Sequence record: OZ335956.1
Source: a phage
Reading direction: 5' to 3' (one strand)
Length of the DNA stretch: 49,912 nt
This document shows positions 31,350 to 48,110 of this stretch, piece after piece. The notes beneath the pieces are model-generated. The model was not told the origin of the DNA, did no database searches, and worked only from the letters and a program-made list of their open reading frames with translations. The translations under genes and the position numbers were made by a program. Every line of letters starts with the position of its first letter. The first letter of the stretch is position 1.

Positions 31350-32501
31350 ATGTCACAAGCTAAAATCACTACCGAGCAACTAATCGAAGAGCGCATGAAC
31401 GGCCTAACGCTTCGCGAGATCGCGGAAAAGTACGGTATGCATATCCGCACGGTTGAAGCGCGTCACGCCAAACTTGCAAAAGAAGGCCACTTTCACGGTA
31501 ACGAGCATGTTGCTAAAAACGTTCCAGAAGGCTTCATGGTTAAAGGTACATCAACGATGATTCGAGGTGATGGGACCGAAGTGGTCCGCTGGGTTAAGAC
31601 AGATCAGGATCGTGAGAAGATTGCCGCAATGATGGAAGCGGCTCGTATTGCATTCTGCGAAGACCTGCCGCGAGCAAAGCCAACCGAGCTACTCACCTCG
31701 CAAGGACTTACAACCGCGATCGGTAAGCTGGCGCTCTATCCGGTATTCGACCTTCACATCGGCGCGCTTGCTCACAAGCATGAGTGCGGAGAGAACTACT
31801 CTACCGACGTAGCTGAAAAAGTGCTGGGCGACTTCTTCAATTATGCGATCGATATCGCGCCAAATGCAGAGAAAGCCGTTCTGTTAATCGGCGGTGACTT
31901 CCTTCACTCTGACGGCCTTGACGCTGTAACCCCGGCAAGCGGTCACGTTCTGGATCAGGATTCACGATACGCTAAGTTGGTGCATGTAGCGATTCGATCG
32001 GTGCGACGAGCTATCGACAAAATGCTGACGAAACACAAAGAAGTCGAAGTCCAGGTCATTGAAGGAAACCACGACCAATCAGGAATGATTTGGCTGCGCG
32101 CTGCAATGGCTGCATACTATGAAGACGAGCCGCGAGTATTCGTTGACGTGAGTCCTATGATTCTGCATAAGACTCGCTGGGGCAATACCTTGCTGGGATA
32201 CACTCACGGTCACACGATGAAAAAGGCCGACATTCGACTTGCAGCAATGGCGGCAGACTTCCGCGCAGACTTCGGTGAAAGCAAATACGTGTACACGCAC
32301 AGCGGACACTGGCATCATCAGACAATCACTGAACACTCGTTAGGAATTGATGAGGTTCACGGGCAGTTAGGAGCGAAGGATGCATACGCCGCGCGAGGCG
32401 GGTGGCGCTCATATCGCCAAGCGGCGGTAATCGTTTACGACAAGCAATTTGGTGAGATAGGTCGATTCATCTATCGTCCAGAAATGACAGGATCGCACTA
32501 A
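31350..32501 (+). CDS. metallophosphoesterase with N-terminal HTH
   Basis: calcineurin-like motifs DLHIG, GGDFLH, GNHD, GHTH, GHWH; N-terminal LTLREIAEKYGMHIRTV resembles an HTH. Confidence 0.65.
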   Translation: MSQAKITTEQLIEERMNGLTLREIAEKYGMHIRTVEARHAKLAKEGHFHGNEHVAKNVPEGFMVKGTSTMIRGDGTEVVRWVKTDQDREKIAAMMEAARIAFCEDLPRAKPTELLTSQGLTTAIGKLALYPVFDLHIGALAHKHECGENYSTDVAEKVLGDFFNYAIDIAPNAEKAVLLIGGDFLHSDGLDAVTPASGHVLDQDSRYAKLVHVAIRSVRRAIDKMLTKHKEVEVQVIEGNHDQSGMIWLRAAMAAYYEDEPRVFVDVSPMILHKTRWGNTLLGYTHGHTMKKADIRLAAMAADFRADFGESKYVYTHSGHWHHQTITEHSLGIDEVHGQLGAKDAYAARGGWRSYRQAAVIVYDKQFGEIGRFIYRPEMTGSH

Positions 32502-45479: not shown

Positions 45480-45682
45480 CAGCAGAAGATGCAGCACGCG
45501 ACGCAGTGGAAGGAATGCGCCCAAATAGCTCCAGAATCGCCCACTACTACAAATCTGAGGTGTCGGCAGTGCAATTGACCCACGAAATTTTAAGGCTCCC
45601 ACAGGTCGATTCAGCGCGCGTAGTGACGTGCTTAAAAAATTATTTTTGCATTGCTATTAAAACGAATAGCACGAATTGCTAA
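45464..45682 (+). CDS. hypothetical early protein
   Basis: 72-aa ORF ending in motif site 45667. Confidence 0.4.
   Translation: MATIMTAEDAARDAVEGMRPNSSRIAHYYKSEVSAVQLTHEILRLPQVDSARVVTCLKNYFCIAIKTNSTNC
45667..45681. promoter_or_regulatory. palindromic motif site, perfect, heading an early module
   Basis: tagcacgaattgcta then hairpin GGGGAAT..ATTCCCC enclosing GCGCTATGAT. Confidence 0.55.
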
Positions 45683-45739
45683 AACCTATCAAGGGGAATG
45701 CGCTATGATTCCCCTACACCAACAAGCGAGGAAACACAC

Positions 45740-46186
45740 ATGAAACACTTAATCTGTATTGAAGCACCTAACGATGAATACACTCTTCACGGCATTGGTA
45801 TGTTCAAAGGTCACTATATGACCGCAAGCATTTACGACGCGCATCGAGGTGACGGCGATCTAATGATTAAGTCAAAAGAGGTTAATCCGTACATCATGCA
45901 GAATCTTGGTAATAACGAATATATGGCCTACGGATGCAATGCGGTTTACAAGCACATCAAGATCCGCAAGCGTGTAGTGCGTGCATTCAAGAAAATTGCA
46001 ATGAAGCACTGGAAGATGAGCAAGAAGGACGCCGGACGCTGGGCGCGCAATGTTGCTGACTCATACTTCTACCGTAACGGTGAGTCCTGCTACTTCCTTA
46101 TCGATGAACTTATGGAAAACTGCGGAGGCGACTTCAGCCAGATTAGCTTTGACGATTGGGCTAACTATGAGATTAGTTGCTGGTAA
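45740..46186 (+). CDS. hypothetical early protein
   Basis: 148 aa, RBS GAGGAAA. Confidence 0.55.
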   Translation: MKHLICIEAPNDEYTLHGIGMFKGHYMTASIYDAHRGDGDLMIKSKEVNPYIMQNLGNNEYMAYGCNAVYKHIKIRKRVVRAFKKIAMKHWKMSKKDAGRWARNVADSYFYRNGESCYFLIDELMENCGGDFSQISFDDWANYEISCW

Positions 46187-46201
46187 TGGCACGAATTGCT
46201 A
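46187..46201. promoter_or_regulatory. palindromic motif site heading an early module
   Basis: tggcacgaattgcta then hairpin AAGGGTA..TGCCCTT enclosing TGATAGAAT. Confidence 0.5.
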
Positions 46202-46269
46202 AAACTTGCTCAAGGGTATTTGATAGAATGCCCTTCGTTGAGTTAAGCAACCAATCAGAGGAATAAATC

Positions 46270-46803
46270 ATGGATAAAATTACAATTTGGGGTCAGACTA
46301 TCAACCTGTTTCTCGGCACGCGTCGAGTTGCAATCTTTGACTTCGACGGAACACTGAGCGACGGATCTGGTAGACTTCACCTGCTACCGACAAAGGATTT
46401 GCACTTGACTGAAAGCTGGTCCGAGTTTAACCGCGCGGCAATATTTGACAACCCTATCCAAAGCACGATCGATGTGATGAACTCTATGTTTGCAGCTGGT
46501 TATCATGTGATCATTTTAACCGGGCGAAGCGATGAGGTGCGTTACGCATCTGAGTTATGGCTTAAGCATCACGGCGCTCGATATGATTACTTAGTCATGC
46601 GACCGCACACTGACAACCGCAAAGACACGGTAATGAAAGAAGAGGCGGTGCGCGCGATCGGTATTGATAATATTCTGGCGGCCTGGGATGACTCACCTCA
46701 AATTATTCCATTACTCCGTTCGCTTGGAATAACCACTTACGCTGTAGTTGATTATGGCGATAAAGTTCACGATCATTTAAAATCTCACGGGGTAGATGAA
46801 TGA
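46270..46803 (+). CDS. HAD-family phosphatase (polynucleotide 3'-phosphatase-like)
   Basis: N-terminal DxDGT motif in FDFDGTLSDG; leader caaccaatcagaggaataaatc. Confidence 0.6.
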   Translation: MDKITIWGQTINLFLGTRRVAIFDFDGTLSDGSGRLHLLPTKDLHLTESWSEFNRAAIFDNPIQSTIDVMNSMFAAGYHVIILTGRSDEVRYASELWLKHHGARYDYLVMRPHTDNRKDTVMKEEAVRAIGIDNILAAWDDSPQIIPLLRSLGITTYAVVDYGDKVHDHLKSHGVDE

Positions 46804-46910
46804 ACCTATACGAATTTATTGCAGCACATCCGGTATTGACGGTTATCATCCTGTTAATCATCAATCACACTATCATCAATGTGGCAAAATTATTTTTAGG
46901 GAGATACTAG
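46800..46910 (+). CDS. small hydrophobic peptide (36 aa, below track cutoff)
   Basis: ATG 46800 overlapping phosphatase stop; predicted transmembrane segment. Confidence 0.25.
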   Translation: MNLYEFIAAHPVLTVIILLIINHTIINVAKLFLGRY

Positions 46911-46911
46911 C

Positions 46912-47484
46912 ATGAAAACAGCTATCATTTTAAACGGCGCGCCGGGCGCTGGTAAGGACACTATCGGCGCAATCCTGGCTGACATTTACGATCACGTAGC
47001 TTTGCGCAGCTTCAAAGAGCCGATGTTTGAGATTGCTCGGGCAATACTTGGTGAAACTAACTACGAGTATTTCATGTTCTTGTATGAGGACCGTCGATAC
47101 AAAGAAGAGCCAGCATCTATCCTGAACGGTAAAAGCCCACGCCAGTTTATGATCTGGATTAGCGAAGAGGTAATCAAGCCACAGTTCGGCAATCGCTTCT
47201 TCGGTATGCGAGCGGAAAGTAAGGTGAAAGAGTCGTACTCCCTTTCGGTATTTACTGACGGTGGATTCAAAGATGAGATCTTGCAAATGATTGAAGGCGA
47301 TATCCAGGTAAAGCTATGTCGAATCCATCGCAACGGTTGCAACTTCGATAATGACAGTCGCGATTATATCTACCTGGATGATATGATCGGGGTCAACGGT
47401 TATCAGGAATGTGATTTCTTCTCTGTTGAGGGTCATCCTGAAATTACCGCTCAGCACATAGCCGCCACATTCATCAATAAATAG
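46912..47484 (+). CDS. P-loop nucleotide or polynucleotide kinase (putative)
   Basis: Walker A GAPGAGKDT near the N-terminus; RBS GGGAG. Confidence 0.6.
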   Translation: MKTAIILNGAPGAGKDTIGAILADIYDHVALRSFKEPMFEIARAILGETNYEYFMFLYEDRRYKEEPASILNGKSPRQFMIWISEEVIKPQFGNRFFGMRAESKVKESYSLSVFTDGGFKDEILQMIEGDIQVKLCRIHRNGCNFDNDSRDYIYLDDMIGVNGYQECDFFSVEGHPEITAQHIAATFINK

Positions 47485-47496
47485 CACGAATTGCTA
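47482..47496. promoter_or_regulatory. palindromic motif site, perfect, heading an early module
   Basis: tagcacgaattgcta followed by TGATATAGT. Confidence 0.55.
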
Positions 47497-47556
47497 AAGC
47501 GTCGGTGGGGTGATTTGATATAGTTACCTCATCGACAACGAAGAGAGAAAATCGAA

Positions 47557-47766
47557 ATGATGGTATCAACTGATAAGCTTTTCACTTGCACTAAAACTTC
47601 TGAAGTATTCGAACTTATCCATACTGATGATGGCGATTTCATGTATGACGGTTGCGACGCTTTCATTGAAGTGAAAGAAAGTGACTATGACGAAGGCGTT
47701 TATTATAATCCGGCAGTGAGCACTCAGTTTTTTACACCGATCGAAGAAGAAGGAGAAGGGGCATGA
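47557..47766 (+). CDS. hypothetical early protein
   Basis: 69 aa, acidic. Confidence 0.5.
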   Translation: MMVSTDKLFTCTKTSEVFELIHTDDGDFMYDGCDAFIEVKESDYDEGVYYNPAVSTQFFTPIEEEGEGA

Positions 47767-48110
47767 TTACGATTAACCTGTCAGAGAAGCAAGCTCGTGA
47801 AATACTTGATGCTATTGGCGATCAATTACACGTAAAGGGTGCTGCGGCTGAATTGCTAAACCAGATCGACAAACAACTAACTCCAATATCGACGAATCAA
47901 GCTGAGTTTGCAGTCTGGAAAAGTGAGCGAATCTTGCCAAATATTATCAAGGCGTGGAAGCGCAAGCATAAAAAGCAGGTTAACGTAGAGGAATTATTTA
48001 CCGATGAATTAAGTCCTGCTAAGGTTGCTCAGTACCAGTTGCGATACATGGAGTCGGTTTGTAATCAGGTTTTAGGTTTGGATATAAAAATGGTAAAAGG
48101 TGATAAATAA
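47763..48110 (+). CDS. hypothetical early protein
   Basis: 115 aa, RBS GAAGGAGAAGG. Confidence 0.5.
   Translation: MITINLSEKQAREILDAIGDQLHVKGAAAELLNQIDKQLTPISTNQAEFAVWKSERILPNIIKAWKRKHKKQVNVEELFTDELSPAKVAQYQLRYMESVCNQVLGLDIKMVKGDK

Follow-up and report, generated by a model that had tools for sequence, protein, structure and literature searches.

A linked phosphatase and kinase gene pair of T1-like coliphages as a candidate nucleotide-salvage cassette

Two adjacent early genes on the + strand of the T1-like coliphage genome in sequence record OZ335956.1 (49912 bases, referred to as a whole as the window) encode a HAD phosphatase, followed by a P-loop kinase. We propose, with a probability of about 0.5, that this pair is a two-enzyme nucleotide-salvage cassette in a host-DNA-degrading phage. 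The phage, without DNA polymerase or deoxynucleoside triphosphate (dNTP) synthesis genes of its own, would feed on the degraded host chromosome: the kinase, as a compact deoxynucleoside monophosphate (dNMP) kinase of the gp1/Dnk type, would turn dNMPs from host DNA into deoxynucleoside diphosphates, with the host nucleoside diphosphate (NDP) kinase completing the conversion. The phosphatase would be a Mg-dependent aspartyl-phosphate (DxDxT) phosphomonoesterase, most likely acting on deoxynucleotides or short degradation products, with 3'-phosphoryl ends or 3'-dNMPs as candidate substrates, and its action would allow breakdown products to join the 5'-dNMP pool or to be balanced there. Both genes would be expressed together as one unit.

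Several lines of evidence point to this reading. Relatives of the kinase are encoded near thymidylate synthase and ribonucleotide reductase genes in a Vequintavirus, and have exonuclease genes as neighbors in both a Kuravirus and an Ahphunavirus. The genome lacks a ligase, the 5'-deoxyribonucleotidase Dmp of phage T5 falls into the same family (PHROG 415) as the phosphatase, and the phosphatase carries an insert at the HAD cap position. Furthermore, T1 and TLS have been described to break down the host chromosome and to recycle its nucleotides (PMC11447400).

Across positions 45600-47800, the window shows 100% identity to Escherichia phage UP30 (OX638287.1; Drexlerviridae, Tunavirus, T1-like); for many T1-like coliphages and Shigella phages, the identity is 91-92%. 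Each of the two genes can be assigned to a known family, and GenBank already carries the corresponding annotations. Among the 75 annotated genes of the identical record OX638287.1, no DNA polymerase, dNTP-synthesis gene or ligase is found, and all open reading frames (ORFs) of at least 230 aa in the window match annotated genes of that record, leaving none unassigned and no ligase among them. A preliminary description, made from the DNA letters alone, had noted that no ligase gene is evident; this holds for both the annotation and the large ORFs, so that the combination expected for heal-and-seal RNA repair, i.e., a ligase encoded with end-healing enzymes, is absent. There are no tRNA genes in the genome. 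The window itself is a circularly permuted version of the UP30 record (49834 bases) and begins at the large terminase gene; it is 78 bases longer, which could reflect an end overlap or terminal redundancy.

Features of the two genes in the window are as follows:
46270-46803, + strand: stand-alone HAD (DxDxT) phosphatase of the Pnkp phosphatase-domain family, 177 aa (ORF A)
46336-46356, + strand: HAD motif I of the phosphatase, FDFDGTL, residues 23-29, aligned with T4 Pnkp D165 and D167
46372-46440, + strand: subfamily-specific insert RLHLLPTKDLHLTESWSEFNRAA of the phosphatase at the HAD cap position, residues 35-57, near-invariant in 37 homologues
46912-47484, + strand: P-loop kinase, compact dNMP-kinase-like member resembling T4 gp1 and T5 Dnk, 190 aa (ORF B)
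46936-46962, + strand: Walker A motif of the kinase, GAPGAGKDT, residues 9-17, a GKD(T) variant as in T4 gp1 and T5 Dnk (both SGKDT)

The phosphatase and its relatives

The phosphatase matches the Pfam profile HAD_PNKP (PF25109) with 60.8 bits (cutoff 27.6), covering 136 of the 143 profile positions, and phrog_415 with an E-value of 4e-66 in a profile search. Its only significant sequence matches in the PDB are Capnocytophaga Pnkp1 and the phosphatase domain of T4 Pnkp, and the fold of its predicted structure is likewise closest to solved Pnkp phosphatase domains. In the alignment with T4 Pnkp (29% identity), D24, D26, T84, K123, and D141 correspond to T4 D165, D167, S211, K258, and D278, while R35, R86, D119, and D140 correspond to T4 R176, R213, D254, and D277. 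Since D165 acts as nucleophile, D167 as acid/base, and D278 as Mg ligand in T4 Pnkp (PMC3592404), D24 and D26 of the window enzyme are predicted to serve as nucleophile and acid/base, respectively, and on the basis of its sequence ORF A belongs to the Pnkp phosphatase clade and is predicted to be active. The recognition of an HAD phosphatase with the motif FDFDGTL, as in T4 Pnkp, in the preliminary description is thereby borne out; the motif I of T4 Pnkp (VIFDVDGTL) is the same motif.

However, the window enzyme differs from T4 Pnkp (pseT) and Capnocytophaga Pnkp1 in several respects. It is not a bifunctional Pnkp, as the 177-aa protein comprises the phosphatase domain only, without a fused Pnk-type kinase domain, and the window genome provides no RNA ligase as a partner. 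It has an extra near-invariant insert of approximately 16 residues after motif I as well as a conserved C-terminal tail, HLKSHGV. Homologues are 162-264 aa long among the matches listed. The insert (RLHLLPTKDLHLTESWSEFN) is near-invariant across the 37 homologues of the subfamily and absent from T4 Pnkp; it is also present in the Krischvirus W115 3'-phosphatase, P1 Pap, the phosphatase of Aeromonas phage yong1, and the 2 fusion proteins described below. The confidence of the structure model is low at the insert. Cap-position inserts in HAD enzymes usually go along with small substrates, and the same may apply to this subfamily.

The C-terminal tail (residues 163-177, ..HDHLKSHGVDE) is conserved across the subfamily, with Y162 and G174 being invariant. 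It is predicted to be disordered (pLDDT < 50) and runs on into the linker in the fusion proteins. It may represent a docking peptide for the kinase or another partner.

The same subfamily includes P1 Pap and the "3'-phosphatase" of the Escherichia phage W115 (Krischvirus). The latter is a stand-alone protein of 158 aa, whose gene (locus L087, 4998-5474) overlaps the 3' end of nrdB and lies inside a thymidylate synthase and NDP reductase cluster. A full-length Pnkp and an RNA ligase are present in W115 as well, at a distance of 2-5 kb from the stand-alone phosphatase. The overlap with nrdB, together with the presence of a full Pnkp and RNA ligase in the same phage, suggests a role other than RNA end healing for this enzyme. 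Moreover, T4 Pnkp also hydrolyzes 3'-dNMPs (PMC3592404). Homology by itself is thus compatible with either a nucleic-acid end or a mononucleotide as the substrate of the phosphatase. The finding of a phosphatase subfamily that has its own cap-position insert and occurs in nucleotide-metabolism contexts is a modest novelty.

The kinase and its relatives

The second gene had been described, from its GAPGAGKDT motif, as an adjacent P-loop kinase, and its product indeed matches phrog_139 ("dNMP kinase") with an E-value of 4e-47. The profile matches of both proteins lie well outside what chance would give. T4 gp1 (2e-65), T5 Dnk (1e-51) and the kinase all align to approximately positions 82-265 of this profile, and T4 Pnkp gives no match to it. 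Compared with the P-loop pattern GxxGxGK(S/T), GAPGAGKD retains the Lys and has Asp instead of Ser at position 16. No significant Pfam or NCBIfam match was obtained for the kinase, and the NCBIfam search returned nothing useful for the phosphatase either. PDB sequence searches with the kinase, either as a single sequence or as a 40-sequence profile, yielded generic P-loop matches only, so that a fold comparison was needed. In this comparison, the predicted structure of the kinase was closest to 1DEK (T4 gp1), its best structural match, over the full length. The preliminary description had proposed a profile comparison with T4 Pnk domains and dNMP kinases, and its outcome is in agreement with the fold: a kinase profile from 81 homologues aligned with gp1 over 175 columns at 92% probability, skipping a 36-residue insert of gp1, and with T5 Dnk at 95.6% probability, but with T4 Pnkp over 25 P-loop columns only.

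Identity to T4 gp1 is approximately 13%, and the kinase is 50 residues shorter, lacking gp1 residues from about 96 to 131; both share PHROG 139, the GKDT variant of Walker A, and an identical LNGKSP. Conserved counterparts in the kinase were found for gp1 K37, R68, R132, M135, D175, E181, and R197, with the roles of gp1 residues taken from Table 2 of PMC10653934. At gp1 positions that bind the phosphate or base of the dNMP, K35, R61, R77, D116, and E122 are conserved in the kinase, but R177 is not, its counterpart being the almost invariant Gly118. T140 of gp1 is replaced by Glu and V144 by an invariant Lys. The setting differs from that of T4 gp1 as well, as T1 DNA contains no modified base for which a special kinase would be required. 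With T5 Dnk, the kinase shares the segment SF-K/A-x-P...ILG after the P-loop.

In contrast, neither sequence nor fold similarity to the Pnk-type kinase domain extends beyond the P-loop. T4 Pnk requires the general base Asp35 and the 3'-phosphate ligand Arg38, both following strand 2 (PMC2831316). Neither has a conserved counterpart in the corresponding kinase segment S33-F34-K35-x-P among 40 and 81 homologues. The kinase is therefore a member of a compact, uncharacterized gp1/Dnk subfamily and not a Pnk-type kinase, its gp1-like nature, established by fold and profile, being a modest addition to what was known. The family is large, with 4801 representatives at 50% clustering. The dNMP kinase and nucleotide metabolism that the preliminary description had offered as its alternative are thus favored here by family profile and fold, with dNMPs as the probable substrates.

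A parallel for both genes is found in T5, which, like T1, degrades host DNA and whose Dnk and Dmp fall into PHROGs 139 and 415, the same two as the window pair. T5 Dmp (L089, 124-858) matches the whole phrog_415 profile with an E-value of 4e-57 and has 11 invariant columns in common with the window phosphatase in a multiple alignment. A related reading would be a Dmp/Dnk-like pool-balancing pair, in which an HAD 5'-(deoxy)nucleotidase and a dNMP kinase form a substrate cycle that sets the composition of the nucleotide pool; the phosphatase would be base- or sugar-selective, removing, e.g., dUMP, ribonucleoside monophosphates or excess dNMPs, and the kinase would drive the wanted dNMPs toward dNTPs. 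We consider this unlikely. Dmp has large insertions, is only remotely similar to the window phosphatase and gives no Pfam match, HAD_PNKP included, whereas the window enzyme is closer to the 3'-phosphatase of T4 Pnkp. In addition, the T5 genes lie 21 kb apart and belong to the pre-early and early classes, being expressed at different times, and co-expressing or even fusing opposed activities on the same substrate would be hard to rationalize.

A functional analogue of the kinase is T7 gp1.7, an early dNMP kinase of a phage that likewise draws on the breakdown products of host DNA. Its fold is unrelated, without a P-loop, and it is not known to have an associated phosphatase.

Linkage, expression layout and fusions of the two genes

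In the window, the phosphatase and kinase genes are separate and 108 nt apart, each with a GAGG/GGGAG-type ribosome-binding site 8 nt upstream of the start codon. Linkage was counted in 80 IMG/VR loci encoding the kinase. The phosphatase lies upstream on the same strand, in the order phosphatase to kinase, in 74 of these, with distances ranging from a one-base alignment overlap up to 2.2 kb; in 21 loci the two genes abut or overlap, often with overlapping stop and start codons. Of the 6 remaining loci, one is cut by the contig end and 5 have no phosphatase within 4 kb. The two genes are thus clearly linked. The arrangement extends to Aeromonas phage yong1 (Autographiviridae), where phosphatase and kinase overlap by 4 nt beside genes for an exonuclease and endonuclease VII. 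A survey of the Drexlerviridae reported that the pair relocates together behind a DNA-repair exonuclease in other genera, and interpreted it as nucleotide supply (PMC13164509). What our analysis adds is that the pair is translationally coupled in 2 phage families and fused in some uncultured phages.

The latter is seen in 2 representatives of the kinase family, P0210 (403 aa) and P0220 (461 aa), both from metagenomes, which are in-frame fusions of an N-terminal HAD_PNKP domain with a C-terminal kinase and carry the cap insert of the subfamily. P0210 was found on 3 contigs, 2 of which belong to the 50-200 kb length class. The fusion genes are located at L085, 6001-7212 (Logan contig ERR14657200_31590, 60.8 kb), and L086, 498-1883, and the linkers between phosphatase and kinase comprise roughly 50-100 residues. 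The phage encoding P0210 is uncultured and about 60 kb in size; RdgC, NinH, a Dam-type methylase, and a PAPS-reductase-like protein are encoded there as well. In mammalian PNKP, the phosphatase precedes the kinase, and P0210 and P0220 share this order. Mammalian PNKP and Clostridium thermocellum Pnkp are, however, bifunctional or trifunctional end-healing enzymes with a kinase domain of the Pnk family, while the kinase described here belongs to the gp1 family and is encoded separately from the phosphatase in the window.

The surroundings of the two genes likewise suggest a single expression unit, as copies of a repeated intergenic element flank the pair and none lies between the phosphatase and kinase genes:
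46190-46232, + strand: CACGAATTGCTAAA box followed by a hairpin with the -10-like hexamer TAGAAT, upstream of the phosphatase
47485-47530, + strand: next copy, directly after the kinase stop codon, at the end of the two-gene unit (-16.4 kcal/mol, z -4.3)
Copies across the window: 4202, 22420, 25436, 30508, 30840, 32496, 37139 (- strand), 38255 (- strand), 41755, 43370, 44096, 45670, 46190, and 47485

The window contains 14 copies of this element (CACGAATTGCTAAA box and hairpin) versus 0.5 expected. An upstream TAG stop codon is followed by the CACGAATTGCTAAA box, a hairpin of 7-13 bp, a CATCGAAAC-like stretch, a ribosome-binding site and ATG. The loop or 3' arm of the hairpin contains TGnTATAGT or TATAAT. 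The stems vary in sequence yet remain complementary, with z-scores from -2.8 to -5.1 in 10 of the 14 copies. The copy at 46190 (hairpin -11.8 kcal/mol, z -3.1) probably provides the start signal for the phosphatase-kinase unit. An assignment of the box as a sigma-70 promoter was rejected, since TTGCTA and TATAGT are spaced by 21-22 nt and a consensus scan called none of these sites. The element is therefore promoter-like only, and could represent a structured promoter or else a signal for RNA processing.

The conserved layout has to be set against cases in which the genes occur apart. In a further reading they would be neighbors only as early DNA-metabolism genes, with a dNMP kinase beside an independent DNA-repair 3'-phosphatase that clears blocked 3' ends on phage DNA for host polymerase and ligase. 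In its favor, the kinase occurs without the phosphatase in Vequintavirus, Kuravirus, and the 5 loci mentioned above, P1 (pap) and W115 have the phosphatase alone, and phage records number 2391 for the phosphatase versus 1429 for the kinase, i.e., about 1000 more for the former. In many Drexlerviridae, moreover, the pair is interrupted by other genes over as much as 2.2 kb. Nevertheless, the fixed order on one strand, the translational coupling in 2 unrelated phage families, and the in-frame fusions are difficult to account for unless the proteins share a pathway or complex, and independence of the two genes is very unlikely.

A different neighborhood was observed in a podophage-like group (L065, 2792-5520; also L067 and L082), where the kinase has no HAD neighbor. 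It is flanked there by genes for a metallophosphoesterase-like protein of ~377 aa on one side and an ATP-dependent DNA ligase on the other, and the start of the ligase gene overlaps with the stop of the kinase gene. The ~377-aa protein shows metallophosphoesterase-like motifs, yet has no Pfam match at E <= 0.001. The order of phosphoesterase, kinase, and ligase genes is suggestive and recalls the kinase/phosphoesterase/ligase content of Clostridium thermocellum Pnkp. However, T7 also has a nucleotide kinase near its ligase. A conserved three-gene set was considered and rejected, as the T1 "DNA repair exonuclease" (window 31350-32501) shows no significant similarity to the podophage metallophosphoesterase-like genes.

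Nucleotide salvage, end healing and the meaning of the pair

The proposal of a nucleotide-salvage cassette has to be weighed against a number of observations. The nearest characterized relatives of the phosphatase, by sequence and by fold, are polynucleotide end-healing enzymes, and its BLASTP similarity to T5 Dmp is remote (E 0.055) and confined to motif I. The kinase has no match to Pfam DNMK (PF21448) at E <= 1, compared to 357.9 bits for T4 gp1 and 43.4 bits for T5 Dnk. Arg177 of gp1, a ligand of both phosphate and base of the dNMP, is replaced by an almost invariant Gly (Gly118) in the DGGF motif of the kinase. Furthermore, neither the need of dNMP salvage for a 3'-phosphatase nor the reason for fusing a phosphatase to a dNMP kinase is evident, and joining a 5'-dNMPase to a dNMP kinase would seem futile. 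Family membership, catalytic residues, fold, co-expression layout, conserved gene order, and the fusions are thus on record for the pair, while its substrates and its salvage role are inferred.

A rival reading takes the pair as a non-orthologous analogue of Pnkp, in which the HAD enzyme would strip 3'-phosphates or 2',3'-cyclic phosphates and the gp1-like kinase would act on the 5'-OH ends of broken DNA or RNA by phosphorylating them, with healed ends being sealed by a host ligase or passed to exonucleases. In a variant, the kinase would convert 3'-dNMPs to 5'-dNMPs via pNp. The phosphatase, most similar to end-healing enzymes, retains all T4 Pnkp positions named above; order and strand are kept in most loci, with abutting or overlapping genes in a considerable number and the same arrangement in an Autographiviridae phage; the 2 natural fusions, one on several contigs, reproduce the domain content of Pnkp; and the podophage kinase has a metallophosphoesterase-like gene on one side and an ATP-dependent DNA ligase on the other. 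However, the affiliation of the kinase with gp1/Dnk and its missing catalytic residues speak against an end-healing kinase, and we regard both versions, taken together, as quite unlikely. A split end-healing Pnkp had also been the first suggestion of the preliminary description: the Pnkp-type phosphatase and the adjacency of the genes stand, while a Pnk-type kinase does not, as the gp1/Dnk-type protein lacks Asp35 and Arg38.

The more specific claim that the pair is one bifunctional machine, an independently evolved Pnkp analogue in which a dNMP-kinase scaffold has been recruited for 5'-OH termini or 3'-dNMPs, is decidedly unlikely in our view. Such a machine would consist of two separate, co-translated proteins in T1-like phages and of a single fused one in some uncultured phages. 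If this were true, it would heal breaks with 3'-phosphate and 5'-OH ends or move the phosphate of 3'-nucleotides to the 5' position, serving salvage or undoing damage by host defense nucleases.

Two further candidates were dropped. The lack of protection against Drexlerviridae by retron Eco2, which cleaves tRNA, was rejected as evidence for RNA repair, as the corresponding paper credits the triggering to DenB of T-even phages. The 5-hmdU DNA kinase was not retained as a precedent for a nucleotide-kinase-like enzyme that works on DNA, since no family link is given in the paper describing it and the pathway for 5-hydroxymethyluracil is absent from T1-like phages.

Irrespective of which reading applies, the annotation of the phosphatase family deserves attention. 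Thousands of phage genomes label it "polynucleotide kinase", though it is devoid of a kinase domain. The phrog_415 label is a misnomer, given that the stand-alone members examined, T5 Dmp included, contain no kinase, and it probably misleads searches for RNA-repair or counter-defense genes. The coupling and the natural fusions furthermore pose a biochemical question, namely what a Pnkp-type phosphatase and a gp1-type kinase do jointly. Ordinary dNMP salvage as the answer would make the pair a matter of routine annotation, whereas a kinase active on 5'-OH ends would represent a second, independent invention of Pnkp. For the biology of T1, the conserved phosphatase-kinase cassette is an obvious candidate for the nucleotide end of the pathway by which host DNA is reused.
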